This document shows, piece by piece, positions 46,280-62,362 of a stretch of 64,000 nt of DNA. Under the pieces are notes generated by a model. The model had not been told where the DNA came from. It searched no databases and saw only the letters and a list, made by a program, of their open reading frames with translations. Each line of letters starts with the position of its first letter. The first letter of the stretch is position 1. Source of the stretch: an uncultured Actinomycetes bacterium (GTDB taxonomy: Bacteria > Actinomycetota > Thermoleophilia > RBG-16-64-13); NCBI GenBank assembly GCA_963706025.1, contig CAVPLM010000003.1:800001-864000 (forward strand), read 5' to 3'. Both the position numbers and the translations under genes were made by a program.

Positions 46280-46389
46280 CGTGTCTCACCTCCAGCTGCT
46301 GGATCATGACCACGAGACCAGACTAACACACGTTAGGTTACCGGTCTATAGGATCTTCCGCCCGTCCTTCGCGGGCTACCGCGTGTCGG

Positions 46390-46642
46390 CAACAAGGACG
46401 TCTCGTGGTGCGGGGTCACTGCTGAGATCGCCATGCGGATCATGGAGCAGGCCTACGGCTTGCTGGTCACGCCCATCAAGCGCGTGGCGGCCGCGAACAT
46501 ACCCGTCCCCCCCGGTCATCTGGAACGGTGGGTTCTGCCCAAACCGCAGGCCATCGCCAATGCAGTTGGGTCCGTCATGGGGATCGATGAGCAGCTTGCG
46601 GTGACTGCGAGGGCACCAGGCCCCGGGTCCACTGTGGTCTAA
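46390..46642 (+). pseudogene. C-terminal remnant of a second E1 beta subunit (inverted orientation)
   Basis: CGVTAEIAM…PIKRVAAANIPVPPGHLE..VLPKPQ matches the C-terminus of 44134..45171. Confidence 0.8.
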
Positions 46643-46731
46643 TGTGGGTGCCCGGCCCGGCCGCTGGGCCTGTTCTCCCACCAACTCCAAGAGCGGCTTC
46701 GCGCGAACAGTAAGGGTCCGCAGCCGTGTTC

Positions 46732-46790
46732 TTGACAAGACCGTCCGTAGAACCTAGTATCTATCCAAGGCCTCCTAATGCGCATTAGGA
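46732..46790 (+). promoter_or_regulatory. sigma70 promoter plus palindromic operator of the transporter/catabolic operon
   Basis: TTGACA-N17-TAGTAT; perfect 18-bp palindrome TCCTAATGCGCATTAGGA at 46773-46790. Confidence 0.8.
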
Positions 46791-46833
46791 AACCGGCCTC
46801 CGTTTGGGCACTCTATCAGGGGAGAGGTATGAG

Positions 46834-48126
46834 ATGAAGAGGTCTGTTCCATTAGTCTTGCTGGCACTCGCGACTGTCATATTACTTCTTGTCGTACCCA
46901 TGGCCGGCTGTGGCGAAGATGAGGAGACCACCACGACGGCGGCGAACACCGCCACGACAGCAGCACCGGCTACGACGACCACGGCGGCGCCGACCACGAC
47001 GACTTCGGCAGCGCCGGCTGAGCCCATCAAGATCGGCTGCCTCCTCGACCTGACTGGATTCCTCGCCTGGACGGGGACCGACAACCAGAAGGGGATGGAA
47101 CTGTGCCTTGAGTTGGCCGGTAACCAGGTGGCCGGTCATCCCATCGAGTTCATAGTCGAGGATGCCGCCACCGACGGTGCCGTCGCCATGGACAAGGCAA
47201 GAAAACTGGTCGAGACCGACAACGTAAGCATGGTCCTGGGTCCCGTCAACGGCATGGGCGACCAGGCGATCACAGGATACATGGAGGAGCAGGGGAGACC
47301 CCGCATAGAGCTGGCGCCTACGGAAGAGATAGTGGCAGGGTCCGGAGCTGCGTGGAACTTCATGCCCCACGGTTCCGGCATGATGTTCGGGTACGCCGTG
47401 GCGGACTATGCATACAATGACAAGGGATACAGGTCGGTTGTCGGCTTGGGCGCCGATATGGATGCCGGCCATACCTTCCTGGGCGGTTTCCTCTCGGCCT
47501 TCACGGACCTGGGCGGGACGATAGCCCAGGAAACCTACTATGCCCCTGGCACGACCGACTTCCTGCCGTTCTACGCCAGCTTCCCGCAGGCCGACTGCGT
47601 CGCCACCTGGTGGCCGGGCACAGACGGGCTCTCCGGGTTCCCACAGTACGCGGAGTCCGGGTTGACCATGCCCATGATTCAGCCCGAGGACGGTGGCCTT
47701 ACGGCCGACCCGAAAGCCCTGGCCGAGCTCCCGTCCGCTGTGGGTTGCGAAGCAGGTACGTTGTACACGTATCTCATGGAGACGGAGGGCAACGAGGAGT
47801 TTGTTGCCGCGTATGAAGCCAAGTACGGTGTGAAGCCGGGTGTCTTCGCCGGCACAGGCTACGCGACGATGCAGTACGTCCTCTCGGTCCTGGAGGCTAC
47901 GAACGGCGACACTACGCCGCAGGCGCTGCAGGAGGCCTTGAAGGCGGCCAACATCGAGACAGTGTGCGGGCCGGTCTACTTCCCGAGCGAGGCGAACAAT
48001 ATTGGCATAGGCCGCATTCTCATAATGAAAGTGAGCGAGGACTTGCTGCCGGAGGCGATCAAGACCATCCAGGTCAAGGAAGAACACGACGCGTCAGGTG
48101 CACCAGTACTCTCGGTAGTCCAGTAG
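46834..48126 (+). CDS. LIV-type ABC transporter substrate-binding lipoprotein
   Basis: MAGC lipobox, Thr-rich linker, PIKIG..DLTG, ARKLVE.D.V. Confidence 0.9.
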   Translation: MKRSVPLVLLALATVILLLVVPMAGCGEDEETTTTAANTATTAAPATTTTAAPTTTTSAAPAEPIKIGCLLDLTGFLAWTGTDNQKGMELCLELAGNQVAGHPIEFIVEDAATDGAVAMDKARKLVETDNVSMVLGPVNGMGDQAITGYMEEQGRPRIELAPTEEIVAGSGAAWNFMPHGSGMMFGYAVADYAYNDKGYRSVVGLGADMDAGHTFLGGFLSAFTDLGGTIAQETYYAPGTTDFLPFYASFPQADCVATWWPGTDGLSGFPQYAESGLTMPMIQPEDGGLTADPKALAELPSAVGCEAGTLYTYLMETEGNEEFVAAYEAKYGVKPGVFAGTGYATMQYVLSVLEATNGDTTPQALQEALKAANIETVCGPVYFPSEANNIGIGRILIMKVSEDLLPEAIKTIQVKEEHDASGAPVLSVVQ

Positions 48127-48328
48127 CCTAGCTCTGGTCATAAGACCCAGCAATTGACCGACTGCCTATCTATCGGAGATAGCGTGCCACGGGTCTTCAC
48201 CCATCGGCCGGCTCTGCGGCCTCGCAAAGGCGACCCATGGGGGGCCCGTGGCATGTCTCCTCCGATTCGGATCCTCGGCGGGTTCCCTCCACCAGGGGCC
48301 TTGATGTTCGAGAAGGCCTGACCCCACA

Positions 48329-49183
48329 ATGAGCGCACTCTATTCGATCCTGTCCGGCATCTCCTACGGGATGGTCCTGTTCCTGCTGTCTGCCGGCGTC
48401 TCTATAGTGTTCGGACTCATGAACATCGTGAACCTGGCTCATGGCATGCTCTTCATGCTGGCCGCGTATGCGGGAATAGAGGTCGTGCAGTCCACCGGCA
48501 GCTTCTGGCTCGCCCTGGTGGTCGGCATCTTCGCAGCCGGTCTTGCGGGATTGATCATAGAGCGGGGCTTTCTCCGCACGCTCTATGCCAAACAACTGTC
48601 TCAGATACTCGTCTGTTTCGGCTTTATCTACGTAATCACCAATCTGCACCTCTGGCTCTATGGGCCGATTCCGAAGACAATGCCCGTTCCCGAAGTATTG
48701 CAGAACTCGGTCCCTATCGGCGCGTATCAGTTCAGCTACTACCGCATCATGATCATCCTTGTCGGCCTGCTCCTGTGCGGGCTTCTCTATTTTGCCCAGG
48801 AGCGCACCAGAGTGGGAGCGATCGTGCGGGCGGGGATGGAAAAGCCCGAGATGGTGAACACCATGGGCATCAACCTGATGGCCGTGAACATCGGAGCCTT
48901 CTTTGTGGCCTCTTGCCTGTCGGGTCTGGCGGGCGTTCTGGGCGCCGGGGTCATCGGAGGGGTGTCTTACTTCACCGGGGGAAATTATGTCTTCGTGGCG
49001 ATCGCGGTGTGCATCATCGGCGGTGTAGGCTCGGTGCAAGGAGCTTTGGCAGGCGCCCTCATCATTGGTGTGTGCGAAGCCCTCGCCAAGACGTTCTATC
49101 CTCCGCTGGCCTTGTACATCATGTACCTCTTGATGGCGCTGGTGATCATATTCCGGCCCAGCGGGTTGTTGGGCAAGAAATGA
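48329..49183 (+). CDS. LIV-type ABC permease (LivH-like)
   Basis: FGLMNIVNLAHG, IIGGVGS. Confidence 0.9.
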   Translation: MSALYSILSGISYGMVLFLLSAGVSIVFGLMNIVNLAHGMLFMLAAYAGIEVVQSTGSFWLALVVGIFAAGLAGLIIERGFLRTLYAKQLSQILVCFGFIYVITNLHLWLYGPIPKTMPVPEVLQNSVPIGAYQFSYYRIMIILVGLLLCGLLYFAQERTRVGAIVRAGMEKPEMVNTMGINLMAVNIGAFFVASCLSGLAGVLGAGVIGGVSYFTGGNYVFVAIAVCIIGGVGSVQGALAGALIIGVCEALAKTFYPPLALYIMYLLMALVIIFRPSGLLGKK

Positions 49184-50256
49184 GAGCGAAGCGTTCCGCA
49201 GACGGCTCCGTTCCTGCCGGTCGAGCGCTCCCGCCGCATCTCGGCAGACGGCTCGCATACTTCAGTCCGCTGGCCGCCGCCCTGCTCGTTCTGCTGAGCG
49301 GCCCCGCCTTCCTGGCTCCGGATATGGTCAGCCTCCTGATCAAGATCGTCATCTACGCCCTGCTGGCGATGAGCCTGGACCTGATCTTCGGGTACACGGG
49401 CTTGTGGTCTTTCGGGCACGCGGCCATTTTCGGCGTTGCCGCCTACACCGTTGCCATCCTTGTCATCAAGGTAGGTCTCACGACCTTCTGGGTGGTGGCT
49501 CCCATAGGCGTGGGGGCGGCGGTCATCATGGCTGCGCTGTACGGTGTGTTAGGACTGCGCTCCAGAGAGATCTACTTCATGCTGGTCACGTTCGCCTTCG
49601 GGCAATTGATCTACGTCGCCGCGCGAACCTCCACCGCGTACACGGGAGGGTCCAACGGCATCTGGGGCGTCCCTTACCCGGATCTGGGTTTTGGCCCGCA
49701 ATTGACCAAGACGAGCTACTACTACTTCGTGCTGATAGTGGTAGCCATCGGGGCTGTGTTGCTGTACCGGATCACGAAGTCCCCGTTCGGCTACAGCCTC
49801 AGGGGCATCCAGGACAACGAGGTCAGAACCAAGGCCCTTGGCTACAACACTTGGATGCGGCGTTTCTTGGCCCTCATCCTGAGCGGCTTCTTCGCCGGCG
49901 TGGCTGGGGTGCTCTACATCTACTACAATGGCGGCATCGGGCCCGAACAGGTGGGTTTGGACTACTCCGGTCTGCTCATCATGATGCTGATCATCGGCGG
50001 CATGGGCACGCTTTGGGGGGGCGTGATCGGCAGCGTGGTGATCCTGCTCCTCTCGTACGTCATCAGCCTGTATACGCCGGCCAGATGGCCGTTGATCCTT
50101 GGTTCCCTGTTCATCGCGGCCGTGTTCTTTGCCGGGGACGGCATCTTGCCCCGTTTCACAAAGTTGTGGAAGCGGGTCTGCCGGTACCAGGTGAACGGGG
50201 GCAGCCGCTCGGAGAGGGCGCCGGAAGACGTGTCTTTGGGCGACAAGGGCTCCTGA
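49180..50256 (+). CDS. LIV-type ABC permease (LivM-like)
   Basis: GYTGLWSFGHA, YFMLVTFAF, TGGSNG, SPFG. Confidence 0.9.
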   Translation: MRAKRSADGSVPAGRALPPHLGRRLAYFSPLAAALLVLLSGPAFLAPDMVSLLIKIVIYALLAMSLDLIFGYTGLWSFGHAAIFGVAAYTVAILVIKVGLTTFWVVAPIGVGAAVIMAALYGVLGLRSREIYFMLVTFAFGQLIYVAARTSTAYTGGSNGIWGVPYPDLGFGPQLTKTSYYYFVLIVVAIGAVLLYRITKSPFGYSLRGIQDNEVRTKALGYNTWMRRFLALILSGFFAGVAGVLYIYYNGGIGPEQVGLDYSGLLIMMLIIGGMGTLWGGVIGSVVILLLSYVISLYTPARWPLILGSLFIAAVFFAGDGILPRFTKLWKRVCRYQVNGGSRSERAPEDVSLGDKGS

Positions 50257-50257
50257 G

Positions 50258-51016
50258 ATGGCGGACATGCTCAAGATCGACAACGTGACCCAGGCCTACG
50301 GCGGCCTCACGGTACTCCAGGGTATCAGCTTCGTGGTCGCCCCCGGGGAGAAGGTGGCCCTGATCGGGCCCAACGGGGCCGGCAAGACTACCGTGCTCAA
50401 CGTGCTTACCGGCCTGCTTGCCCCCGCGTCGGGCAGCGTCTACCTGTCCGGGCAAGACATAACGGGACTCCCGGTGCAGAGGAGGATCGCCCTTGGCATG
50501 GGTCGGAGCTTCCAGATCACCAGCCTCTTCCCCCAGCTCAGCATCCTGCACAACGTCCTGCTGGCCCTGTTGGGGGTTCAAAGAGCGAGCTACCACATGC
50601 TGCGGAGCATCACCTCCTTCAAGGCGGCGAACGCCGCGGCGAAGCAGTTGCTCGACTCGGTCGACCTATGGGATGCGCGTGACCTTCTCCCCACAGAGAT
50701 CTCCTACGGGCAGCAGAGACGCCTGGAGCTCACCTTGGCCCTGGCCTCTCAACCCAAAGTCCTCCTGTTGGACGAGCCGAGCGCGGGCCTCTCGAACGAA
50801 GAATCTGCCGCCCTTGGCAGAATGCTGCGGCTGCCGGCCTATGAGGACGTGGCGATCCTGCTGGTGGCTCACGACATGGACCTGGTCTTCGGGGTGGCGG
50901 ATCGGATCCTGGTGCTCTACTACGGCGCCATCGTTTCCGAGGGCAAAGCCGAGGAGATTCAAAGAGACGAGAAGGTAAGGGAGATCTACTTCGGCTCGGG
51001 GGCGGACCGTGCTTGA
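50258..51016 (+). CDS. LIV-type ABC ATPase (LivG-like)
   Basis: GPNGAGKTT, ISYGQQR, LLDEP. Confidence 0.92.
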   Translation: MADMLKIDNVTQAYGGLTVLQGISFVVAPGEKVALIGPNGAGKTTVLNVLTGLLAPASGSVYLSGQDITGLPVQRRIALGMGRSFQITSLFPQLSILHNVLLALLGVQRASYHMLRSITSFKAANAAAKQLLDSVDLWDARDLLPTEISYGQQRRLELTLALASQPKVLLLDEPSAGLSNEESAALGRMLRLPAYEDVAILLVAHDMDLVFGVADRILVLYYGAIVSEGKAEEIQRDEKVREIYFGSGADRA

Positions 51017-51719
51017 GATCGCCGGCATCGATACGTACTACGGCCAGACCCAGATCTTGAGGAACGTCTCGTTGGCCGTGGAAGAGGGCAAGATAGTCAC
51101 CCTGCTTGGACGCAACGGCATGGGGAAGACCACCACCGCACGCTCGATCATGGGGCTCACGCCGCCTCGCGCTGGATCCATCACGTTCGAGGGCAAGGAC
51201 ATCACGCACCTGAAGCACTTCCGCATCGCCCGCCTGGGGCTGGCTCTGGTGCCGCAAGGTCGCCTGATCTTCGCCTCGCTGAGCGTGAAGGAGAACCTGA
51301 CCATGGGGATGCGGGGGGAAGGGTTCTCGCTTGACAACATATACGAGTACTTCCCGGTCCTCAAAGAAAGATCGAAACACAAGGGGAACCAGCTCAGCGG
51401 CGGCGAGCAGCAGATGCTGGCCATAGCCCGGGCCCTGCTTGCCAATCCCAAGCTACTGCTGTTGGACGAGCCCTCCGAGGGCCTTGCTCCAAGGATCGTG
51501 GAAGAAGTGGGCCAGATCGTCCTGAAGCTCAAGGAGATGGGATTGTCGGTCCTTCTGGTGGAGCAGAACCTGTCATTGGCTCTCGGCGTGAGCGACTATG
51601 CCTACGTGATGCACAGGGGAGAGATCGTCTACCGGGGAGCCACCGCGGAGCTGGCACAGAATGATGCCGTGCAGGCGGAGTACATTGGCGTTTCCGGGTC
51701 GGGACGAAGCGCGGGTTGA
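51009..51719 (+). CDS. LIV-type ABC ATPase (LivF-like)
   Basis: GRNGMGKTT, LSGGEQQML, LLDEPSEGLAP, VEQN. Confidence 0.92.
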   Translation: MLEIAGIDTYYGQTQILRNVSLAVEEGKIVTLLGRNGMGKTTTARSIMGLTPPRAGSITFEGKDITHLKHFRIARLGLALVPQGRLIFASLSVKENLTMGMRGEGFSLDNIYEYFPVLKERSKHKGNQLSGGEQQMLAIARALLANPKLLLLDEPSEGLAPRIVEEVGQIVLKLKEMGLSVLLVEQNLSLALGVSDYAYVMHRGEIVYRGATAELAQNDAVQAEYIGVSGSGRSAG

Positions 51720-51743
51720 CCTAACCGAAAGGAGAAGGGGTCG

Positions 51744-52732
51744 ATGCACGAGATTGACTTTTCCAAGTATAAAGATGTGCCGCCCTACATGTTCATCCCC
51801 TTCGCCAAAGACACCATCATGGACATGTCCTACCACGACAGGTGGAACATCCCGGACAAGGTGGGCATAACCGTCGCGCCGGTGGGAGCCTTCGTGAAGC
51901 GTGACCAGAACCCCTATCAGCCGTATACGCCCGAGGAGATCATCAAGGAGTGCATCGAGGCCGTCGAGGCAGGGGCCTGCGGAGTGCACATCCACGTGCG
52001 CGACGAAGAAGGTAACCCATCGTCCGACCGGACGATGACGCTGCAGGTGGTCAACGCTCTGCGGGAGCGGTTCAGGGACACCGTCTACATCGAGGGAGAG
52101 GCCAACACCGGCCCCGACTTCGAGACCATGATGCAGCCGCTAGTCGAGGACTACCTGGAGAACGCCGCCGTCAACTGTATGGCGGATTTCATCGGGGACG
52201 CCCTGTTCTGTCTGCCGCCGCAGACCTGCCGGGCGACCGCCGAGGTGATCCAGGCCTGCGGCAAGAAGGTCACGCTGGCGGTATACAACGCGGGGGATAT
52301 CGATAACACCTACCGGTGGATCATCAAGCCAGGCGTCGTCAAGCCCCCTTCTGCTGGGGGGTGTGCATCGGCACGCCGGGCGGAGCCCCGATGTGGGACC
52401 CGCTCGGCATGGCGGAGACGCTGCTGGGCGTTATCCGGCGCATCAGGGACGTCGACCCCTCGGACAGCCCCTTCATCACCGTGTGCCAGGCGGGGCGGGC
52501 CTCCTCGTACCTGTCGACCTTGGCGATCCTGCTCGGCTGTAACGTGCGTGTGGGCAAAGAGGACGCCATCCACGTGGTGCCGCACAAGGACGACAAGATC
52601 GTCTCCTGCAAAGACGCTGTGGAACAGCACGTCGTGCTGGCCAGGCTGCTCGGCCGGGAGCCCATGACCGCGGCCGAGTACCGGGTGGCCAACGCCATGG
52701 CTCCCTACGAGTACAGAGGGGCGTACACATGA
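51744..52732 (+). CDS. Beta-keto acid cleavage enzyme (BKACE/DUF849); frameshift in the C-run near 52345
   Basis: ITVAPVGA, P.TPEEI, AGA..VHIHVRD; shifted frame gives VRVGKED…GREPMT. Confidence 0.85.
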
Positions 52733-53493
52733 AACGCGTGAAGGACAAGGTGGCGATCGTCACCGGGGCGGCCAGCGGCATGGGCGAGGCCTCGGCGCGG
52801 CTGCTGGCCCGCGAGGGGGCTAAAGTCGTGATGTCCGACATCAACGAGGTAGCTGGAGACAGGATAGCCATGGAGATAGCAGGTCAGGGCGACACCTGTG
52901 TCTTCATGAAGCACGATGTGGCCAGCGAGTCCGACTGGCAGCGGGTGATCGCGGGCACTCTCGAGCGTTTCGCCAGGCTTGACGTACTCGTGAACAACGC
53001 CGGCGTCACCGTGAACAAGGATATCGAGGAGACCACGCTGGAAGAGTGGCGCTGGGTCATGAGTGTCAACCTGGACGGTGTGTTCCTCGGGGTCAAATAC
53101 GCCATGGGGGCTATGAAGAAGACCGGGGGCGGTTCGATCATCAATATCTCTTCGGCCGGGGGGATCGTCGGTCAGTTGTGGGCTGCTGCCTACAACGCCA
53201 GTAAGGGCGGCGTCAGGCTGCTGACGAAAGCGGCCGCCCTCGAATGTTCAAAGGCGGGGCGCGACTACAACATCCGAGTCAACTCGATCCATCCCGGATG
53301 CGTGCGCACGGCTCTCCTGGAGCCTCTGCTCAAGAAGAAGGAGATGGCGGACATCATCAACAGTCTGCATCCAATAGGGCACCTGGGAGATCCGGAGGAC
53401 GTGGCCTACGCAGTCCTCTACCTGGCGTCTGATGAGTCCAAGTTCGCCACCGGCTCGGAACTGGTGATCGACGGAGGCTACACGGCCCAGTAG
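52729..53493 (+). CDS. Short-chain dehydrogenase/reductase
   Basis: TGAASGMG, NNAG, YNASK, DGG. Confidence 0.93.
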   Translation: MKRVKDKVAIVTGAASGMGEASARLLAREGAKVVMSDINEVAGDRIAMEIAGQGDTCVFMKHDVASESDWQRVIAGTLERFARLDVLVNNAGVTVNKDIEETTLEEWRWVMSVNLDGVFLGVKYAMGAMKKTGGGSIINISSAGGIVGQLWAAAYNASKGGVRLLTKAAALECSKAGRDYNIRVNSIHPGCVRTALLEPLLKKKEMADIINSLHPIGHLGDPEDVAYAVLYLASDESKFATGSELVIDGGYTAQ

Positions 53494-53540
53494 CAGTCGA
53501 TCGGGGAGAAGACGGTCGTCACAGAGCGAAAGGTGGAGAG

Positions 53541-54551
53541 ATGAAGAAGTTGATCAACAACCCATACGAGGTCGTCGACGATACGCTCGCCGGTATTCTC
53601 AAAGCCTATCCATTCCATCTGCGGGCCTGTCGGGAAAGCCAGCGGGCCTTGGTGCGCGCGGATGCGCCGGTGAAAGGTAAGGTAGGCATCTGCACGGGAG
53701 GAGGGTCGGGTCATATTCCTGTGTTTCTCGGCTATGTCGGCCCGGGCCTGCTTGACGGAGTGGCCGTAGGCAACGTCTTTTCGTCTCCAAGCGCGGAGGA
53801 CATGCTGGCTGCCGCCAAAGAGGTCGACGGCGGTGCCGGCGTGCTCTATCTCTACGGGAATTACCAGGGCGACATTATGAACTTCGACATGGCCGCGGAG
53901 ATGGCGGAAGTCGACGGAATCGCCGTAAAGACGTGCATCGCCATGGACGACGTCGCCTCAGCCCCGCGTTCCGAAATGGAGCACCGTCGAGGCGTGGCCG
54001 GCATCTTCTTTGCCTACAAGATCGCCGGAGCCAAGGCCGACACCATGGCCAGTCTCGACGAGGTCAAAGCTGTGACCGACCGAGCGATCGAGAGCACGTG
54101 CACCATGGGGTTCTCTCTCAGCCCCTGCACGATCCCAGCGGTCGGGAAACCCACCTTCTCCATCGCTGAGGATGAGATGGAGCTCGGCATGGGCATCCAC
54201 GGAGAGCCCGGTATCGAGCGCACCAAGCTGAAGCCGGCCAACGAAGTGGCCACTATCGTCACGGAGAAGCTCATCGCCGATCTGCCCTTCAGGGCCGGCG
54301 ACAAGGTGGCTGTGCTGGTCAACGGTCTGGGGGCCACTCCGCCGGAAGAGCTCTTCATCCTGTACAGCAAGGTCCACGACATTCTGAGGGAGCACAGCAT
54401 CGGGATATATCGGTCCTTCATTGGCGAATATGCGACGTCCATGGAAATGGCCGGCGCGTCGGTCACGTTATTCAGGCTGGACGAGGAATTCATGAGTCTG
54501 CTGGATGCGCCTGCGTACTCACCGTTCTTGCTGCAGTGGCCTAGGCCGTGA
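53541..54551 (+). CDS. dhaK: Dihydroxyacetone kinase subunit K-like
   Basis: MKKLINNP, GGGSGH.P, NYQGD..NF, GMGIHGEPG. Confidence 0.9.
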   Translation: MKKLINNPYEVVDDTLAGILKAYPFHLRACRESQRALVRADAPVKGKVGICTGGGSGHIPVFLGYVGPGLLDGVAVGNVFSSPSAEDMLAAAKEVDGGAGVLYLYGNYQGDIMNFDMAAEMAEVDGIAVKTCIAMDDVASAPRSEMEHRRGVAGIFFAYKIAGAKADTMASLDEVKAVTDRAIESTCTMGFSLSPCTIPAVGKPTFSIAEDEMELGMGIHGEPGIERTKLKPANEVATIVTEKLIADLPFRAGDKVAVLVNGLGATPPEELFILYSKVHDILREHSIGIYRSFIGEYATSMEMAGASVTLFRLDEEFMSLLDAPAYSPFLLQWPRP

Positions 54552-55207
54552 GCGCGTTTGCCTTCGACAGTGCTGACCTCTGTCGCATGCTAAGTCAGGT
54601 AGCGGCCGGTCTTGCGGCGCACAGCGAAGAAATGCGAGAATTAGACGCAAAAGTAGGTGATGGAGACCTGGGGATCACGGTTGGCCTGATCGCCAAAGCC
54701 TTGACCGACTTCGCAGAAACAACGAGCGAAGCAGATGTAGGGAAGCTGCTCATGCAGTGCGGCTTGGCGGTCAACAGATCCAATCCCTCCACTTTCGCCA
54801 CTATTCTTGCATCTGGATTCATGGGTGGTGGCAAAGCTGTCGTCGGCAAGACGTCTATCGGGCTCAGTGACTGGGTCGCCATGGGCGAAAGCGCGGTCGA
54901 CAGCATGCAGTGCCGTGGCAAGGCGTCGGTAGGAGACAAGACCCTGCTGGACACGCTGGTGCCGGCTATCGCGTCGCTGGCAGCCGAGGCGCGCAAGGGG
55001 AGCGATGAACGGACCGCGGTGCTGGCAGCGTCGCGGGCCGGTGAGCAGGGGATGAGGGCCACCACAGATATGGTCGCCAGGTGCGGCAGGGCCAGGGCTT
55101 TTCAGGAGCGGAGCATTGGCGTGCAGGACGGCGGCGCCACGGCGATGTTCTACATGATCAACGCCTTTGCGGAGTTTGTGGACGCCTCGCTCCCGAATGT
55201 GGGTTGA
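54548..55207 (+). CDS. dhaL: Dihydroxyacetone kinase subunit L-like (DAK2)
   Basis: LDAKVGDGD, GKA..GDKTLLD, GRA. Confidence 0.88.
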   Translation: MSAFAFDSADLCRMLSQVAAGLAAHSEEMRELDAKVGDGDLGITVGLIAKALTDFAETTSEADVGKLLMQCGLAVNRSNPSTFATILASGFMGGGKAVVGKTSIGLSDWVAMGESAVDSMQCRGKASVGDKTLLDTLVPAIASLAAEARKGSDERTAVLAASRAGEQGMRATTDMVARCGRARAFQERSIGVQDGGATAMFYMINAFAEFVDASLPNVG

Positions 55208-55267
55208 TGCGATGAACAACGCGACAGATGGAGCCCAGGTCATGCTAAGGCCGGCAAGGAGGAGTGG

Positions 55268-55633
55268 ATGCTAGAGCGCGTAACAAGGGACGATGCCCCC
55301 GTATACCACCTGCCGGGCCGCGATTGGCGCTTGTGCATGGGTCCCGGCATCAGTGAGGTCAAGAACCTGACGGTGGGTGTCTCGATCTTTCCCCCGGGGT
55401 CCGCTCCGCCCGGCCATGTCCACGACCGCGAGGAGGAAGTCATCTACGTCGTGTCGGGACGAGGGGAGCTGCACACACCCGAGTGCTCTGTGTCGTTGGA
55501 GCCAGGGACCTGCGTCTATGTCCCCATCGGGCTGCATCACGCTACTGCTTCACACGGCCCGGAACCTCTCGAACTGGTCACGGCATTCTCACCCCCGGTC
55601 ATGCCCGGATCGTATGAGGTGCAGGAGAGATGA
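55268..55633 (+). CDS. Cupin domain protein
   Basis: HVH..EEVIYV.SG.G…VP.G.HH. Confidence 0.85.
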   Translation: MLERVTRDDAPVYHLPGRDWRLCMGPGISEVKNLTVGVSIFPPGSAPPGHVHDREEEVIYVVSGRGELHTPECSVSLEPGTCVYVPIGLHHATASHGPEPLELVTAFSPPVMPGSYEVQER

Positions 55634-56517
55634 CCCAGGCCTCGCCCAGCATCGACGAGATGCGGGCGATCGCCCGGCGCGGAAGGCGCGAGATCGTCAA
55701 GGCAGTGGCTCGCGCAAAGGGAGGTCATCTGGGTGGGCCCCTCTCTGCCTTCGACATTCTCACCGCCCTCTACTTCAGAGTGTTGAACGTGCGGCCTGAC
55801 GAGCCCTCCTGGCCCGACCGGGATCGATTCATCCTTTCGAAGGGTCACGCCTCCATCGCTCTGTACACGATCCTCGCCCTCCGCGGCTACTTCCCGCTTG
55901 AGGAGCTATCGACCTTCGACGCGATCGATTCCCGGCTGCAGGGACATCCGGACATGACCATCACTCCGGGCGTCGACATGTCGTCCGGCTCCCTTGGTCT
56001 TGGGTTCTCTGCCGGTATAGGGATGGCGCTGGCGGCCAGACTGGCCGGGAAGACCTTCACGACCTGCGTGATGGTCGGCGATGGCGAGTGCAACGAGGGT
56101 ATCGTCTGGGAGGGGGCCCACGTCGCCCAACGTCACGCGCTCGGCAATCTCGTTGTCATAGTCGACCACAATCAGCTCCAGCAGTTTGGATGGCGCGGTA
56201 AGGATGGAGCTGATCGTCTTCCTCCCTACACGGGGACCCAGCTAAAAGACCGGTGGACCTCCTTCGGATGGGAGACGCTCGAGGTCGACGGGCACGACAT
56301 GGCGGCCGTGGTCGATGTCCTTGAGAGGGCCTGGCATGTCAGCGACAAGCCCGCTTTGGTCATCGCCCGCACCGTGAAAGGCAAGGGCGTTTCGTTCATG
56401 GAGGGGGACTTCCTCTGGCATAGCCGGGTGCCCACCGACGAAGAGCTGGCGGCTGCGCTCGAGGAGTTGAAAGAGCCTCCGACTGAAGGGCAGGGGGGCG
56501 TGCGTGGCTCTTCCTAG
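55630..56517 (+). CDS. Split transketolase, N-terminal ThDP subunit
   Basis: GHLGG, DRFILSKGH, LQGHP, GDGE..EG..WE, KGKG. Confidence 0.92.
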   Translation: MTQASPSIDEMRAIARRGRREIVKAVARAKGGHLGGPLSAFDILTALYFRVLNVRPDEPSWPDRDRFILSKGHASIALYTILALRGYFPLEELSTFDAIDSRLQGHPDMTITPGVDMSSGSLGLGFSAGIGMALAARLAGKTFTTCVMVGDGECNEGIVWEGAHVAQRHALGNLVVIVDHNQLQQFGWRGKDGADRLPPYTGTQLKDRWTSFGWETLEVDGHDMAAVVDVLERAWHVSDKPALVIARTVKGKGVSFMEGDFLWHSRVPTDEELAAALEELKEPPTEGQGGVRGSS

Positions 56518-57454
56518 CGGGAAAGCCTTGCGGGTAGCCTTCGGAGAGAGCGTCACGGAGATCGCGAAGCGTGATCCCCGGATCGTCATGTTGGACGGTG
56601 ACGTCGGCATTTCCACTCGTGCCGACATCTTTGAGGCAGCCTACCCCGATAGGTTCTTCCAAATGGGGATCGCGGAGCAGAACATGCTAGGCGTTGCCGC
56701 GGGCTTCGCAAGCGTTGGATTCGTTCCGTTTGTCAGTGTGTTCGCCTGTTTTGCCGTCGCCCGCGCGCTCGACTCGATCCGTGTCCTGATTGCTCAACCA
56801 AGACTAAGTGTCAAGATCGCCGGTGGGTATGCCGGGCTTCTAGCCGGCAAGACGGGGAAGACGCACCTGATGTTGGACGATGTCTCAATCATGCGCGCCA
56901 TGGCGAACATGTCGGTGATCGCCCCGGCCGACGAGATCGAGACCCGACAGGCGATCGAGGCCGCTGTCGAGATCGAGGGCCCCATGTACTTGCGGATCAC
57001 CCGGGAGATCTCTCCACTGCTCTTTGACTCAACCTACAAGTTCCAGTTTGGGAAAGCGGTCGTGGTTCGGGACGGCAGTGACGTGGCGCTCATCAGCACC
57101 GGCGTGCAGACTTGCCGGGTCTTGGAAGCAGCGGAGCTCCTAGCTGCACAAGGGGTCGAGGCGCTCGTCCTGCACGTGCCTACGATCAAGCCGCTCGACT
57201 GTGACGCGATCGTCCGGGTCGCGAGAGAAACAGGCTTTGTCGTCACGATAGAAGACGGCACGGTCATCGGGGGACTCGGCGGAGCGGTGGCCGAAACGCT
57301 CGGGGATCGGTATCCAGTCACCGTGAAGCGCCTTGGCATTCTCGACGTCTTCGGTGAAAGCGGGCCGGACGACGCCCTGCTCGAGAAGTACCGCCTCTCG
57401 CCATCCAAGGTCGCCGAAGACGTAGCAACGCTGCTCGGATCGAGCCGGGGATGA
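56504..57454 (+). CDS. Split transketolase, C-terminal subunit
   Basis: GIAEQN, G.TH, P.YLR, TIKPLD, GGLG, FGESG. Confidence 0.92.
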   Translation: MALPSGKALRVAFGESVTEIAKRDPRIVMLDGDVGISTRADIFEAAYPDRFFQMGIAEQNMLGVAAGFASVGFVPFVSVFACFAVARALDSIRVLIAQPRLSVKIAGGYAGLLAGKTGKTHLMLDDVSIMRAMANMSVIAPADEIETRQAIEAAVEIEGPMYLRITREISPLLFDSTYKFQFGKAVVVRDGSDVALISTGVQTCRVLEAAELLAAQGVEALVLHVPTIKPLDCDAIVRVARETGFVVTIEDGTVIGGLGGAVAETLGDRYPVTVKRLGILDVFGESGPDDALLEKYRLSPSKVAEDVATLLGSSRG

Positions 57455-57530
57455 GCAGCAACAGCGGCGCGGGATGTGCACACGCCCAGTTGACCCCGGC
57501 TACCCCAGTTCGGCGGCGGCTCTACACCGG

Positions 57531-58301
57531 TTAGGTGCCCCGGCGCGCGGTCGCGAATTCGGCGAGTGATTCGTCTTCGTTCGATGCTTTCGCAGCAACG
57601 AGCTCCGGTGACGCCGCCATATCGCGCAGAAAGAGCTCCAGGATTCTTCTGGAGATGCCGTCGGTCACGAACTCTTCGATTCCCATCAGCTTTGTAACGT
57701 CCTCAGCCCAGAAGAGAAGCATCATCTCGTAGGCCGCTACCCGCGGGTCCATGTCTGGACGGATGGTGCCCTGTCGTTTTCCTTCTTCCACGAAACCGGC
57801 GAGTGTCTTCAGGGTCTCGCGCTGCCTCTCACTCGAGACTTCGCAGAGGCCGGAGTCTGGGGGAGCCGTGAGGACCTCGAAGGTAGGGAGGACAAAACCG
57901 TCGAACTCTCCCGAGATAAAGGTGGAGTGGGTTTCGGCGAGGGTTCGGAGGCGGTCGAGCACGTTGGGCTCGGACGGCACGGTCAGGTGCATGACTACCC
58001 TCTCGCACATGACTTCCACAGCGGCAAGCAGCATATCTTGCCTACTGGGGAAGTGGGCATACAGCGATGGTGCCTCCATCCCGACTTCCTCGGCGATCCG
58101 GGATACCGTTGTGCCGTGGAGTCCGTGGCGAGCTATCAGCCGAAGCGTCGCGTCGGCGATCTGGGCCTTTCTCTCGAGACCGCTAAGTCGAGCTCGGGGC
58201 ATCTTGTTCCCGGTCTTGCGGGGGCTGCTACCTTGCGGAGCTTTCCGGTCGTTTCTTCCTCTCTCTGGCGTTCCGTCCAACGGGATTACCTTCTCTCGCA
58301 A
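57531..58301 (-). CDS. TetR-family regulator (alternative start ATG 58202)
   Basis: RKAQIADA…GTTVSRIAEEVG…SLYAHF HTH. Confidence 0.9.
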   Translation of the reverse strand: MREKVIPLDGTPERGRNDRKAPQGSSPRKTGNKMPRARLSGLERKAQIADATLRLIARHGLHGTTVSRIAEEVGMEAPSLYAHFPSRQDMLLAAVEVMCERVVMHLTVPSEPNVLDRLRTLAETHSTFISGEFDGFVLPTFEVLTAPPDSGLCEVSSERQRETLKTLAGFVEEGKRQGTIRPDMDPRVAAYEMMLLFWAEDVTKLMGIEEFVTDGISRRILELFLRDMAASPELVAAKASNEDESLAEFATARRGT

Positions 58302-58471
58302 GAGCCTTCTTGACGACTATGACGACTGTCGATCTTCTCGCCGAGACTGAGTGACTGATTCCTCAGAATAGTGCTCCGGCCGCGGTTCGGTCTAGCGCCG
58401 ATCGGGACCCGCAACTCGTTTTCCGATTCTTCCTTGACGTGCCGACCGTGCGCATGGCACGGATACTATTC

Positions 58472-58635
58472 TACCTAACAAGCAAAGTTAGGTAATGCGC
58501 GAAAGCGAAGACCGTTCGTGGCGATTGCCGGCGCGACCTTTCCCGGCGACACCGGTTGCCTGTGAGACTCGCACTTGATGTGCAAGCCGTCACGTGGTAT
58601 AGGCACTGCTATACCTAACAAACGCAAGTTAGGTA
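58472..58635. promoter_or_regulatory. Two TACCTAAC-N7/8-GTTAGGTA inverted repeats (probable operators)
   Basis: At 58472-58494 and 58612-58635, in the tetR/lactonase divergent region. Confidence 0.7.
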
Positions 58636-58654
58636 ACCCGAAGGAGGGATCAGG

Positions 58655-59485
58655 ATGAAGAAGACGAGGCTTAGCCTCCTGGATAGCGGCACCTTGGCTC
58701 TAGAAGGATACAAGCTGTTCTGGGGGCGTGGCTCGGCCGAGCTTGTCCGCTTCGCCAGTTACAGCGTGCTGATCGATCACAAGGACGGCCTGTTCCTCTT
58801 CGACAGCGGATACGACGGCGACTTCATGGACAAGTGGACCCCGCAAGACCATGCGATCCACAGCCCGGAGCAGACCATACCGGCTCAGTTCGCCAAGCTT
58901 GGGATCGACATGAGCGAGGTGCGGTACATCCTGAACTCGCACCTTCACATCGATCATGTGGGTGGCTTCAAGTTCCTCCCCGACGCGACTATCGTCGTGC
59001 ATGAGAAGGAATACCAAGCTGCCAAGGACCCCATGCCGTTCGAATACCAGAGCTATTCGGACCTGTCCTTCGATCCTGAACTCCACCGGCTGAACTTCAT
59101 GGGGGCGCGAGACATCCTGGGCCGGGCCGGCACGGAGGAGACCAAGCCGGCCAACCCGCGGTCGCCGAGGTACGAGTTCGTCGACAAGGACATCGAAGTC
59201 GCCGAAGGCATCTGGCTTTACGAGACTCCTGGCCACTCCCTGGGTCACATGAGCCTCGTGGTTGAGGGTCTACAGCGCGCGCCCATGATGTTCCCGGCCG
59301 ACGCCTGTCACCTCCCGCGGCACTTGGAGGAGATGATCGTGCCGGGATTCCATGTAGACCCGGTTGCTGCGTACCGGTCGATTGAGAAGGTGAAAGCGAC
59401 CGCCGCTAAGCACGGCGCCGAGGTCTTCTTCGGGCATCCTCCGGGAGATTCGCTCTGCTACCGCAAGGCTCCGGCTTGGTACTGA
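58655..59485 (+). CDS. Metallo-beta-lactamase-fold lactonase, 4-pyridoxolactonase-like
   Basis: NSHLHIDH, TPGH; LLDSGTL..GY..FW.RG…VRF, PFEY..YSDLSF and FHVDPVA match my recollection of Mesorhizobium 4-pyridoxolactonase. Confidence 0.8.
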   Translation: MKKTRLSLLDSGTLALEGYKLFWGRGSAELVRFASYSVLIDHKDGLFLFDSGYDGDFMDKWTPQDHAIHSPEQTIPAQFAKLGIDMSEVRYILNSHLHIDHVGGFKFLPDATIVVHEKEYQAAKDPMPFEYQSYSDLSFDPELHRLNFMGARDILGRAGTEETKPANPRSPRYEFVDKDIEVAEGIWLYETPGHSLGHMSLVVEGLQRAPMMFPADACHLPRHLEEMIVPGFHVDPVAAYRSIEKVKATAAKHGAEVFFGHPPGDSLCYRKAPAWY

Positions 59486-60945
59486 TGAACGCTACCGACA
59501 TCACCGACCTGCGCACGGCGCTCGAGTTTCTCGAGGCGATACCCGGCCAACTGGTGTCGACGAGAGTGGAGGTCGACCCGTACCTCGAGTTGGCCGGTAT
59601 CTACAGACGGGTGGGATCCGGCACGCCGACGGCTCCACCCACTCAGATCGGCCCGGCCATGCTGTTCCAGAACGTCAAGGGCCACGACGTGTCGGTGGTC
59701 GCCGGAGTGCTGGCCAGCCGGGAGCGTACTGCCCTTCTCCTGGGAAGCAAAAAGGAACGGCTGGCCTTCGATCTGCTCGCGGCCTTGGAGCACCCCGTGC
59801 CGGCGGTGGACATCCCAGAGGGGACCGGGGCCCCGTGCCAGGAAGTGGTCATCGAGCCGCCATTCGACATCCGGAGATTCATTCCGGCGATGATCAGTAC
59901 CAAGAAGGACGCCGGAGTCTTTCTGAACATGGCAATAGTCCGCGCTGAGGATCCTGAGAACGGCCAATCGGACGTCACGTTCCATCGCATGTGCATCCAT
60001 GGACCCGAAACCATGACGGTGGAGTTCACGCCCGGCCGCCACATCGACTGCTTCCGACTGAAGGCTGAGGCGAAGGGCAGGCCTTTCCCTGCTTCGATCA
60101 ATATCGGCTTGGACCCGGCCGTGCACGTGGCCACGTCCTTCGAACCCCCCACAACGCCTCTCGGATTCGACGAATTGACGGTCGCCGGCGCCTTGCGGCA
60201 ACGGCCCGTTGAGCTGGCGGGTTGCGTCACGCAGCCCACACGAGCCCTTGCTCGGGCCGAGATCGTTCTGGAAGGGGAGTTCAGACCGGGCGAGTATGTG
60301 GACGAAGACGCGGTCAGCCGGACTGGGTGGGCCATGCCTGAGTTCCCGGGCTACGTGGGCAAGGCCCATCTTCATCAGCCTGTCTTCCATGTGACCGCAA
60401 TCACTCACAGGACCGATCCTATCTTTCAGGTACTGATTGGACCGGGAGAGGAGCACGTGACCCTCACGGGTCTACCCACTGAAGCCAGCATCTACAGGCT
60501 CATCCATAATGCCATGCCCGGCTTCCTCCAGAATGTGTACTGCCATTCATCGGGGGGTGGCAAATACCTGGCCGTGCTACAGGTGAAGAAGAGACATTCG
60601 ATGGACGAGGGCCGGCAGCGTCAAGCAGCGCTGACCGCGCTCGCCGCTTTCGCGGAGTTGAAGCACGTCATTATCGTCGACGACGATGTGGATCTTTATG
60701 ACACAAATGATGTCATGTGGGCCATGACCACCCGCTATCAGGGAGACGTGGACACCATCTGCATCCCGGGCGTGCGCTGCCACCCCTTGGACCCGACCGC
60801 CAACCCTGAATACAACCCGATGTTGCGCGACAGGGGCCTTTCCTGCAAGACCATCTTCGACTGTACGGCTCCCTTCGGCATGAAGGAGCACTTTGAGCGT
60901 TCCCAGTTCGTAGATGTGGACCTGAGGAAGTTCCTGGCTGAGTGA
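59485..60945 (+). CDS. UbiD-family prFMN decarboxylase (AroY/LpdC clade)
   Basis: DLR.A, ELAG.Y..G…PT.IGPAM, SDVTFHR, AMPEFPGY, GPGEEH, HPLDP. Confidence 0.9.
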   Translation: MNATDITDLRTALEFLEAIPGQLVSTRVEVDPYLELAGIYRRVGSGTPTAPPTQIGPAMLFQNVKGHDVSVVAGVLASRERTALLLGSKKERLAFDLLAALEHPVPAVDIPEGTGAPCQEVVIEPPFDIRRFIPAMISTKKDAGVFLNMAIVRAEDPENGQSDVTFHRMCIHGPETMTVEFTPGRHIDCFRLKAEAKGRPFPASINIGLDPAVHVATSFEPPTTPLGFDELTVAGALRQRPVELAGCVTQPTRALARAEIVLEGEFRPGEYVDEDAVSRTGWAMPEFPGYVGKAHLHQPVFHVTAITHRTDPIFQVLIGPGEEHVTLTGLPTEASIYRLIHNAMPGFLQNVYCHSSGGGKYLAVLQVKKRHSMDEGRQRQAALTALAAFAELKHVIIVDDDVDLYDTNDVMWAMTTRYQGDVDTICIPGVRCHPLDPTANPEYNPMLRDRGLSCKTIFDCTAPFGMKEHFERSQFVDVDLRKFLAE

Positions 60946-61051
60946 AGATCAGACGTGGAGAAAGACCACCGTACATTGTGTCGGGGCTCCAGAGAGGTCC
61001 GACTATGATGAGATTCTGGGCCGTGTCATGCCGACCTTAAGGAGACTACAG

Positions 61052-62362
61052 ATGACATCTGATACCAGAACCAACGAGTTGCATAGACGGGCAATGAAGG
61101 TGATGCCCGGGCCACAGAGCAATCTTCGCATGCCCATCAACATCAGACCCACGTTCATCGAGCGGGGACAGGGGTGCCATTTGTGGGATGTGGATGGGAA
61201 CGAGTACATAGACTACATGATCGCGGCAGGGCCAGGGGTGCTTGGACAGAGTAACCCGGAATTCACCGACGCCATGAAGAACCAGCTGGACAAACTGCTC
61301 TACTCAGTTTCAGGAGCTTCGCAGACGCCCATGGAAGTTGATCTTGCCGAGAAGCTCGTACAGATTATTCCATGCGCAGAGAAGGTCAGGTTCCTTCTAT
61401 CGGGAACAGAAGCGGTACAGTTGGCCATAAGACTGGCCAGGGGCTATACGGGGCGTCGCTACTTCGTACGTTTTGAGGGAAGCTACCATGGCTGGTTGGA
61501 CAATGTCCTCGGCGGACTGGTTCATGACGACCCATTGGAGAACCCTTTTCCGTACGAAGGAGAGAGCGATTCCCTGGGGACCGCTGGGCGAGATCCTTCT
61601 GCCTTCGAGCAATGCTTCTGCCTACCATACAATGATATTGAAGTATTCGAGAAAGTGCTTGATCGCTGGGGTGATCAGGTTGCCATGGTCCTTGTTGAGA
61701 CGATCCAGGCGAGCGGGGTCATATCCCCGAGACCCGGCTATCTGGAACGCGTACAGGCGCTGTGTCGCAAATACGGTATCGTCCTTTGCTTCGATGAGGT
61801 AGTCACCGGTTTTCGAGTGGCGTTGGGGGGTGCCCAGGAGCTTTTGGGGATCACCCCGGATCTGGCCATCTACGGCAAGGCACTCTCAGCCGGCTTACCC
61901 TTAGCGGCATTGGCTGGTCGAAGCGATATCATGGATCTCCTGCTGGGACCCAAGGTAGTGGGCGCCGGTACATTTAACGGCTACCCTCTGGGGATATCTG
62001 CGGCATTGACCACCGTGAAAATCCTGGAAAGAAATAATGGGGCTATATACGGGCAAGTAGATCATGTGCAAACCAAGCTCATTGAAGGATTGAGAGCAAT
62101 TCTGAAGCGTCATAAAGTCACGGCGGTGATCCAGAGCGTTAGGGGCATTTTCATCGTCCATTTCACAGACAAAGCTGTTGTCTGGAGTGTAAGAGACCTC
62201 ACGACAGCGGACTCCGCCATGGCTCACCAGTTCCGCCTACGTCTGGCCGATGAGGGTGTACTGATTCTATTTGGCGGCCGCTGGCTAATCACCAGTGCTC
62301 ACACTGAGGAGGACGTAAATAGAACGCTGGAGTGTGCGGATAGGGCTGTGGGCCGGTTATGA
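61052..62362 (+). CDS. Class III PLP aminotransferase (GSA-aminomutase-like)
   Basis: WDVDGNEYID, SGTEA, FEGSYHG, FDEVVTGFR, YGKAL, AGTFNG. Confidence 0.9.
   Translation: MTSDTRTNELHRRAMKVMPGPQSNLRMPINIRPTFIERGQGCHLWDVDGNEYIDYMIAAGPGVLGQSNPEFTDAMKNQLDKLLYSVSGASQTPMEVDLAEKLVQIIPCAEKVRFLLSGTEAVQLAIRLARGYTGRRYFVRFEGSYHGWLDNVLGGLVHDDPLENPFPYEGESDSLGTAGRDPSAFEQCFCLPYNDIEVFEKVLDRWGDQVAMVLVETIQASGVISPRPGYLERVQALCRKYGIVLCFDEVVTGFRVALGGAQELLGITPDLAIYGKALSAGLPLAALAGRSDIMDLLLGPKVVGAGTFNGYPLGISAALTTVKILERNNGAIYGQVDHVQTKLIEGLRAILKRHKVTAVIQSVRGIFIVHFTDKAVVWSVRDLTTADSAMAHQFRLRLADEGVLILFGGRWLITSAHTEEDVNRTLECADRAVGRL

Follow-up and report, generated by a model that had tools for sequence, protein, structure and literature searches.

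The 64,000-nucleotide stretch analysed here (the window; G000:C3:800001-864000) belongs to a metagenome-assembled genome (MAG) of an uncultured soil actinobacterium and carries a gene island at whose core a lactonase-like gene of the metallo-beta-lactamase (MBL) fold is followed by a gene for a UbiD-family decarboxylase dependent on prenylated FMN (prFMN). The two genes are translationally coupled, the TGA of the first (59483-59485) overlapping the ATG of the second (59485-59487) by one base. This TGATG junction had been pointed out in an earlier note on the DNA, which read the island as an oxygen-independent pathway for vitamin B6 or another hydroxypyridine; every gene named there was found by Pfam and NCBIfam at or near its position, so that the observation itself is confirmed, and the interpretation is partly supported. 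Gene identities are based on Pfam and NCBIfam profile scores and PDB matches, and genes at the compared loci were called with a simple open reading frame (ORF) picker based on GC content at third codon positions (GC3) rather than with a trained gene finder. The core of the island comprises the following features.

57531-58301, minus strand: TetR-family regulator, divergent from the lactonase gene (Pfam TetR_N, 55 bits)
58474-58492: putative operator palindrome CCTAAC-N7-GTTAGG, between the TetR and lactonase genes
58614-58633: putative operator palindrome CCTAAC-N8-GTTAGG, separated by 21 nt from the start codon of the lactonase gene downstream
58655-59485, plus strand: MBL-fold lactonase-like gene (NF047925 as top model; homologue of 3aj3)
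59485-60945, plus strand: UbiD, AroY-type prFMN decarboxylase by its matches (Pfam UbiD_N, UbiD and UbiD_C; 5o3m)
61028-62362, plus strand: class-III (Aminotran_3), HemL-like aminotransferase, beginning 83 nt after UbiD

The closest characterised relative of the lactonase is the 4-pyridoxolactonase of Mesorhizobium loti (PDB 3aj3), an enzyme active on an aromatic gamma-lactone, to which it aligns over the full length at 219 bits, and the MBL metal motif HxHxDH (H96, H98, D100, H101), invariant in 19 sequences of its clade, aligns with that of 3aj3. The best NCBIfam model is NF047925, the 4-pyridoxolactonase equivalog, with 276.1 bits against a curated cut-off of 325, which is not reached; the next families, AttM (107 bits) and AiiA (104 bits), are far lower, so that '4-pyridoxolactonase-like' is a sound description of the gene. 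As next-best models, AttM and AiiA would speak for a quorum-quenching N-acyl-homoserine lactonase with no functional tie to its neighbours. This is most improbable, as both scores lie far under their cut-offs (375-390) and under the 4-pyridoxolactonase model, and the gene is coupled to UbiD and kept among conserved catabolic neighbours.

Sub-threshold scores on NF047925 are shared by clade-mates of the lactonase (P0010, 303; P0023, 286), whereas all seven homologues tested from outside the clade and the host's own genome pass, with 342-392 bits (P0041, P0044, P0049, P0053, P0065, P0069 and P0091) and 40-49% identity to the window lactonase; the host's own paralogue on contig C20 reaches 319 bits. 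The clade was delimited in a quick IQ-TREE tree of 81 sequences, for which hits P0041-P0120 were thinned to every second and only lengths of 240-310 aa were kept. There the window lactonase clade (41 rows plus P0043, which is held by the midpoint-rooted clade) is split with an SH-aLRT value of 99 from the proteins that pass the 4-pyridoxolactonase model, six of the tested ones being in the tree. By this phylogeny the lactonase belongs to a clade sister to the 4-pyridoxolactonases. The clade is rare: at E<=1e-40 the lactonase is absent from all 400 other sampled genomes of the phylum. Many soil-metagenome proteins (L026-L092), 37-44% identical to the window lactonase, have been auto-named '4-pyridoxolactonase' by JGI. 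A lactonase paralogue at C3:411.8 kb was considered as a second lactonase-UbiD pair and ruled out, the nearby UbiD belonging to a menaquinone (futalosine) cluster.

The decarboxylase aligns over its full length with the protocatechuate decarboxylase AroY (5o3m, 567.9 bits, query 5-485; 5ny5, 551 bits) and falls below the cut-off of the NCBIfam VdcC model (398 against 650 bits). In AroY the catechol-binding motif is formed by Arg188, His327, Lys363 and His436, Glu289 being the likely catalytic acid, and the enzyme is active on protocatechuate and gallate and does not accept ortho-substituted acids (PMC5656893). When these residues were mapped by hand on the 5o3m alignment (chain numbering minus 20), all five were identical in the window protein. 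The enzyme looks like an AroY-type decarboxylase of the protocatechuate/gallate kind and, because the five residues are conserved, would be expected to prefer substrates with hydroxyls meta and para to the carboxylate, a pattern that 4-pyridoxate does not have; in 4-pyridoxate both ortho positions are substituted. A plain protocatechuate/gallate-type UbiD is the outcome that the earlier note had itself counted against its vitamin B6 route. UbiX, which provides the prFMN for an AroY-type UbiD, is encoded in the host genome and, as that note had it, not in the window: the genome has two Flavoprotein-family matches, both outside the window, of which one is UbiX (262 bits against a cut-off of 188; G000:C3:46416-47057, minus strand), on the same contig, about 754 kb ahead of position 1 of the window and about 0.81 Mb from the UbiD gene. 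The one-base overlap suggests that lactonase and UbiD carry out consecutive steps, and a lactonase that feeds UbiD, as had been proposed, is the simplest reading of the coupling.

The pair and its regulator belong to a larger unit. A tightly packed plus-strand run, in which several gene junctions overlap by 4-14 nt, extends from the gene for a Peripla_BP_6 substrate-binding protein (SBP; start at 46804) to a split transketolase (end at 57454), and the functional unit reaches left of the region first noted, to about 42870, with minus-strand E1alpha/E1beta genes and a broken NicX-like gene. The further features of the island are as follows.

42870-43208, 43397-43747 and 43714-44046, minus strand: broken NicX-fold gene (family X390, described below) in three ORFs, found by tblastn with X390 proteins in shifted frames, directly downstream of E1beta
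44134-45171, minus strand: E1 beta-like gene, dependent on thiamine pyrophosphate (TPP) (Pfam Transket_pyr and Transketolase_C; NCBIfam pyruvate dehydrogenase (PDH) E1 beta 304 bits, below the cut-off of 321)
45172-46251, minus strand: TPP-dependent E1 alpha-like gene (Pfam E1_dh 203 bits; NCBIfam PDH E1 alpha 245, below the cut-off of 394)
46323-46336: operator-like palindrome CTAAC-N4-GTTAG near the E1alpha start
46774-46789: CCTAATGCGCATTAGG, a perfect palindrome of 16 bp within the promoter of the SBP gene, preceded by a TTGACAAGACC box
46804-48126, plus strand: LIV-type SBP (Pfam Peripla_BP_6, 169.5 bits)
48329-49183 and 49180-50256, plus strand: two permeases (Pfam BPD_transp_2, 117 and 132 bits) with an ATGA overlap at 49180-49183
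50258-51016 and 51009-51719, plus strand: two ABC ATPases (Pfam ABC_tran, 110 and 112 bits)
51744-52732, plus strand: divergent beta-keto acid cleavage enzyme (BKACE), frameshifted at about 52348 (two Pfam pieces in different frames)
52729-53493, plus strand: classical short-chain dehydrogenase/reductase (SDR) (Pfam adh_short_C2, 220 bits)
53541-54551, plus strand: DhaK (Pfam Dak1 396 bits; NCBIfam dhaK1 381 against a cut-off of 406)
54548-55207, plus strand: DhaL (Pfam Dak2 124 bits; NCBIfam DhaL 102 against a cut-off of 138)
55268-55633, plus strand: small cupin, a possible isomerase (Pfam Cupin_2 56 bits; no NCBIfam match)
55630-56517 and 56504-57454, plus strand: N and C halves of a split transketolase (Pfam; NCBIfam transketolase halves 268 and 266 bits)

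The palindromes tie these genes together. The pattern CCTAAC-N7/8-GTTAGG has two matches in the window, both between the TetR and lactonase genes, with 0.00 expected, and a relaxed form, for which 0.22 would be expected over 64 kb, has four, none of them outside the island's pair of divergent promoter regions. Because related palindromes lie in both of these regions, the three operons of about 42.9-62.4 kb are suggested to form one TetR regulon with putative operators, in agreement with the earlier proposal that the genes act as one unit. The CCTAAC-N8-GTTAGG site before the lactonase recurs in two relatives (L008 and L009), and L009 has the operator twice, before the lactonase gene and before the SBP gene, whose 138-nt upstream gap holds the same TTGACAAGACC box and then a full CCTAAC-N8-GTTAGG. 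The TetR gene itself is kept at the same position in L008, L009 and L014. A terminator and promoter scan of 57.4-62.8 kb gave sites no more frequent than in shuffles. The right edge of the island is marked by a gene that encodes a fusion of a DnaQ-type exonuclease with a BRCT domain (62699-63898, plus strand), after the aminotransferase, and GC content is down to 0.58 across the window's last 4 kb.

The neighbourhood was compared across 15 distinct loci with orthologues, namely the window itself, L008, L009 and the series L013-L025, in which L014 and L016 are taken as a single locus. UbiD follows the lactonase in four of them only (the window, L008, L009 and L013), which are close kin with lactonases 83-98% identical to the window's and with coordinates that imply the same junction. 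Outside the window the pair, whose recurrence was one of the points by which the vitamin B6 proposal was to be judged, is found together only in three close relatives. The order in L009 is TetR, lactonase, UbiD, SBP, transporter, BKACE, SDR, DhaK, DhaL, differing from that of the window with the same gene set, and in L013 it is E1alpha, E1beta, lactonase, UbiD, AMP-binding ligase. E1beta thus adjoins the lactonase gene in L013, and it is also present in L009. Because E1alpha/E1beta lie on the lactonase strand in these two relatives, a stretch at 46440-46600 (plus strand, between the E1alpha and SBP genes), which by eye suggests a remnant of the E1beta C-terminus, would indicate that an inversion or duplication took place earlier. 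Between E1beta and an old yellow enzyme (OYE)-type gene by TetR, L009 (a relative 87% identical) also has, at 2317-6840, genes that the window lacks: a UPF0261 and PEP-hydrolase-like pair, a member of the NAD-epimerase family and another, distantly related UbiD (26% identity).

At the more distant loci (64-71% identity) other partners appear. In eight of 11 distinct ones the gene after the lactonase encodes a conserved protein (X390), about 380-420 aa long, that matches no Pfam family. In L018, L019, L022 (a fragment) and L023 a gene for an SDR with 48% identity to that of the window faces the lactonase or X390 gene in convergent orientation, and IclR or TetR regulators are also found. O-demethylase-type methyltransferase genes lie near the lactonase orthologue in L017, L018, L022 and L023; in L023 a 1018-aa AhtL-like (pyrogallol-hydroxytransferase-like) molybdenum (Mo) enzyme and its Fe-S subunit are encoded directly upstream of it. 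The lactonase operon of L014 has a BKACE and a split PEP-synthase-like pair, and no UbiD. That pair, the ligase gene that follows UbiD in L013 and the ability of AroY to carboxylate catechols in vitro (PMC5656893) would fit a UbiD that works in the carboxylating direction, from catechol to protocatechuate with subsequent CoA activation, as in anaerobic phenol and catechol metabolism. We give this little credence: the island has no CoA ligase or phenol-phosphorylating enzyme, and an importer whose relatives presumably bind aromatic acids, together with an upstream lactonase that frees a carboxylate, fits decarboxylation better.

The host MAG (3.66 Mb, 30 contigs, 92% complete, 7.3% contamination), closest among public genomes to MAGs labelled uncultured Actinomycetes, points to polyphenols, as do the Mo-enzyme genes of L023. 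PF21423, the large-subunit domain of pyrogallol hydroxytransferase (AhtL), has 25 matches in it, some of them pieces of a single gene, against none in 14 control genomes. The matches are partly in tandem arrays (e.g. C17:25-41 kb, C19:60-87 kb and C5:1089-1094 kb), the expansion being uncommonly large given a genome of 3.7 Mb, and a canonical-looking cluster of BKACE, cyclase and AhtL-like genes lies at C17:21-26 kb. The genome further holds six cyclase-family (PF04199) genes, all outside the window, six BKACE genes and five UbiD paralogues. Neither haem-copper oxidase (COX1) nor cytochrome bd was found in the 92%-complete MAG; for this reason the host looks like an anaerobe, a lifestyle that this negative result, together with the lack of a hemL match above the cut-off, fits without proving it, and the oxygen-free setting assumed in the earlier note is upheld. 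We propose that the MAG represents a polyphenol-specialised, anaerobic, uncultured soil actinobacterium.

The X390 family is the commonest partner of the lactonase orthologues. A profile search among 1.84 billion proteins returned 280 representatives at E<=0.001, the ESM Atlas places X390 beside NicX and peptidase-M29 clusters (score 0.96), and a 29-sequence profile aligns over its full length with 7cn3, the 2,5-dihydroxypyridine 5,6-dioxygenase NicX (E 7.7e-14). The AlphaFold2 model built from the 29-sequence alignment (pLDDT 91.6; an earlier one from five sequences, at 56.9, was discarded) is most similar in Foldseek to 7cn3 (E 3.9e-20, TM 0.63-0.68), followed by M29 aminopeptidases and CgnE/CgnB; on this model the family has the NicX/peptidase-M29 fold. 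NicX presumably binds its iron through two His and one Asp. Identity to NicX is about 15%, the nearly invariant His-x-His of X390 aligns with non-His residues of NicX, one aligned His is nearly invariant, and the position facing the Asp of the NicX 'HLD' stretch is not acidic. A dioxygenase role for X390 is doubtful, because the gene is found in a genome where no terminal oxidase was found. Fragments resembling X390 at 35364-35633 (plus strand) and 41013-41243 (minus strand), with 35-67% identity over 60-90 aa, look like further remnants.

An intact NicX-fold gene is present elsewhere in the host genome, at G000:C5:1086001-1106000 (L114). Its operon also encodes a TRAP transporter, an Amidohydro_2 protein, MarR, a beta-propeller lactonase and two AhtL-like enzymes accompanied by an Fe-S subunit, and the locus further has a thiolase-like/ChsH2-OB gene. 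The best solved relatives of the Amidohydro_2 protein are LigW and gamma-resorcylate decarboxylases, and by its gene content the C5 locus looks like a functional analogue of the island assembled from different families. Two other MBL-lactonase paralogues in the genome, the one at C3:411.8 kb included, each adjoin an Amidohydro_2 gene. Thus the theme of a lactonase beside a decarboxylase-family gene recurs with non-homologous parts. Within the window three amidohydrolase-superfamily genes lie at 26707-29096 and 41384-42604 (minus strand), of which the Amidohydro_2 at 28077-29096 is 24% identical to the LigW-like protein of C5.

The SBP matches 4zpj best among PDB entries (148 bits) and then 4ey3/4eyg/4eyk, 4evq, 4evs and 4f06, which, 4zpj apart, presumably bind benzoate derivatives. 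Literature searches on the PDB relatives of the SBP gave nothing relevant. The BKACE has a 1-nt deletion relative to L008 at about 52348, beside a run of five C, which may be a genuine mutation or an assembly error; the intact 329-aa BKACE of L008 scores 160 bits with Pfam. The island enzyme is divergent, with 130 bits against 382 on NCBIfam Kce and 76.5 against 430 on the triacetate-type NF053538. Orthologues with 54% identity in two of 400 sampled genomes of the phylum have no other island genes nearby and were set aside as uninformative. The best NCBIfam and PDB matches of the SDR are (R)-specific alcohol dehydrogenases. The aminotransferase has further HemL-like paralogues in the genome, where no hemL match exceeds the model cut-off, and a GC3 of 0.61, against 0.71-0.85 for the other called island genes (44134-60945); because it is missing beside the pair in L009 and L013, and so from two of the four lactonase-UbiD loci, it is an accessory rather than a conserved part of the unit. 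Literature searches returned nothing usable on an apiose/tetritol-type sugar pathway for the SDR-DhaKL-cupin-transketolase genes, and no relevant description of a hydroxyhydroquinone/BKACE/lactonase pathway. Upstream of the island, at 32976-39693, lie genes for a sulfatase of 785 aa, a sulfate permease of the SulP/STAS type and a 667-aa OYE/2,4-dienoyl-reductase-type Fe-S flavoenzyme, which scores 370 bits, below cut-off, on both the BaiCD and mycofactocin-OYE models; in L009 a similar OYE-type gene directly adjoins the TetR gene. A link of this stretch with phenolics that are sulfated or unsaturated is conceivable.

Vitamin B6 degradation pathway I runs through pyridoxamine-pyruvate aminotransferase (PPAT, presumably of a class other than III), an SDR pyridoxal 4-dehydrogenase, the lactonase, dehydrogenases, a decarboxylase, a flavin oxygenase and an amidohydrolase. 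The earlier note had drawn from it a route for the island in which pyridoxal would be turned into 4-pyridoxolactone and 4-pyridoxate, the latter then being decarboxylated by the prFMN enzyme and its ring opened in a non-oxygenolytic step. For B6 or another hydroxypyridine speak the lactonase's best characterised relative, the NicX-fold neighbour at the distant loci with its broken copy in the island, and the presence of an SDR and an aminotransferase, and the reading is retained, as quite improbable, because both the lactonase and its usual partner are nearest to hydroxypyridine enzymes. Model scores, tree, UbiD pocket and synteny are all contrary to it. The phylogeny that had been called for puts the lactonase in its own clade apart from the passing 4-pyridoxolactonases, and the UbiD keeps the catechol binders of an enzyme that rejects ortho-substituted acids, which disfavours 4-pyridoxate. 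The SDR, cast as the pyridoxal dehydrogenase, reaches only 179.6 bits against a cut-off of 325 on NF047923 (SDR-type pyridoxal 4-dehydrogenase), 25th of 223 matching SDR models, and the aminotransferase is a class-III protein present in only two of the four lactonase-UbiD loci (the window and L008). Neighbours at other loci are polyphenol enzymes, no literature was found that joins 4-pyridoxolactonase with UbiD, and a vitamin present in traces is improbable as the target of an island with three operons, about 20 genes and an ABC importer of its own.

In light of the UbiD pocket, the neighbours of the lactonase orthologues and the host genome, the last two of which point to polyphenols, the reading that we favour, at slightly less than an even chance, is that the island serves the catabolism of aromatic catechol- or galloyl-type lactones in an anaerobic polyphenol degrader, with the lactonase acting before UbiD. 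The LIV-type ABC importer would take up a hydroxylated aromatic compound; the MBL lactonase would open a lactone ring fused or attached to the aromatic ring; and the coupled AroY-type enzyme would remove the carboxyl freed by hydrolysis from a catechol- or galloyl-type ring. Candidate substrates are ellagic-acid/urolithin-like or hydroxyphthalide-like lactones. SDR, BKACE, DhaKL, cupin, split transketolase, E1alpha/E1beta and the NicX-fold protein may then convert what results from ring reduction or opening into acyl-CoA and phosphorylated C3/C4 units. A more specific form, an undescribed route of anaerobic soil actinobacteria for lactone polyphenols (ellagic acid/urolithins) under one TetR, is unlikely as a whole; in it the lactonase and UbiD would be followed by an O2-independent NicX-fold metalloenzyme, and the TPP enzymes (E1alpha/E1beta and split transketolase), divergent BKACE and DhaKL would cleave the reduced ring to the same acyl-CoA and C3/C4 products.

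Several points weigh against the favoured reading. The product of a fused lactone would carry an ortho substituent, which AroY, as described, does not tolerate, so that the pocket would have to differ. The lactonase-UbiD adjacency is confined to four of 15 distinct loci, all close kin, and the lactonase was met in none of the 400 other genomes of the phylum. The known ellagic-acid opener Eah is of the Amidohydro_2 type (bioRxiv 10.1101/2025.01.17.632430), and EAL, another ellagic-acid-opening enzyme, is likewise of another family (bioRxiv 10.64898/2025.12.05.692447). The BKACE and NicX-fold genes are interrupted in the assembly, and hydroxypyridines are the substrates of the best-matching characterised enzymes for both the lactonase and its most frequent neighbour, which lends some weight to an N-heterocyclic substrate. 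Since 4-oxalomesaconate hydratase matches occur among the Amidohydro_2 relatives, the decarboxylases at the paralogous loci are putative.

Some of the same genes can be divided between two jobs within one regulon, the UbiD decarboxylating imported gallate or protocatechuate and so feeding pyrogallol or catechol to the transhydroxylase-like enzymes, and the lactonase acting later, with SDR and BKACE, on an aliphatic or alicyclic lactone that arises once the ring has been reduced or cleaved (e.g. of the triacetate-lactone type). This alternative is somewhat unlikely but a close rival: the UbiD pocket matches AroY at the five mapped residues, the SBP relatives 4ey3, 4evq and 4evs are presumably benzoate-derivative binders, and the lactonase co-occurs with SDR in four loci and with BKACE in the UbiD-free L014. 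BKACE and SDR are, moreover, the known tail of anaerobic phloroglucinol breakdown (PMC10470551). Against it stand the one-base overlap with its suggestion of consecutive steps, the low score of the BKACE on the triacetate-type model, the absence from the island of a cyclase-family DPGC, the six genome copies lying elsewhere, and the activity of the nearest characterised lactonase relative on an aromatic-fused lactone.

Few enzymes of oxygen-free polyphenol breakdown are known, and such breakdown bears on carbon storage in peat and wet soil, the 'enzyme latch' question (PMC10470551). The locus offers a candidate enzyme pair (lactonase and prFMN decarboxylase), an uncharacterised NicX-fold family, rare and found in company with lactonases in metagenomes of anaerobes, and a candidate regulator with a defined putative operator; in the host, the number of pyrogallol-transhydroxylase-like enzymes is unusually high. 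Were the substrate ellagic acid or urolithins, the pair would represent a second, non-homologous route to a reaction of gut and soil interest.

Three single enzymes invite comparison. The lactonase shares with the 4-pyridoxolactonase 3aj3 the MBL fold, the HxHxDH motif and the end-to-end alignment; its clade differs in its sub-cut-off NF047925 scores, its separate position in the tree and its neighbours, which are UbiD, the NicX-fold protein, SDR and Mo-transhydroxylase-like genes and not B6 genes. X390 resembles NicX (7cn3) in fold and in full-length profile alignment, but differs in its low identity, its mismatched His-x-His and its host genome, in which no terminal oxidase was found. The decarboxylase has in common with AroY of Klebsiella/Enterobacter (5o3m, 5ny5) the full-length similarity, the three UbiD domains, the five residues and the need for prFMN, with UbiX in the genome; unlike AroY, it is coupled to a lactonase, would be under TetR control and comes from an anaerobic actinobacterial MAG.

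Two pathways are close in chemistry. In the anaerobic phloroglucinol pathway of Clostridium scatologenes, PGR, DPGC, TfD and TAL convert a reduced trihydroxybenzene ring to acetoacetate and acetyl-CoA (PMC10470551). The island has in common with it an SDR reductase and a BKACE-family lyase, and canonical-looking copies are found elsewhere in the host genome. However, the island is without the cyclase-family DPGC and the 3-hydroxyacyl-CoA-dehydrogenase-like TfD, its BKACE is divergent, and it adds the lactonase, UbiD, DhaKL, cupin, split transketolase, E1alpha/E1beta and NicX-fold protein; the canonical pathway was ruled out for the island on the missing cyclase-family gene and the BKACE score. 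In gut Coriobacteriia a single Amidohydro_2-type enzyme, Eah, both opens and decarboxylates ellagic acid and is encoded beside Mo catechol dehydroxylases (bioRxiv 10.1101/2025.01.17.632430). The chemistry would match by analogy, with lactone opening and galloyl-type decarboxylation beside genes for Mo enzymes of the DMSO-reductase family, and the C5 locus has the same kinds of parts; whereas one enzyme suffices in the gut cluster, the island would divide the work between two unrelated families, MBL and UbiD.

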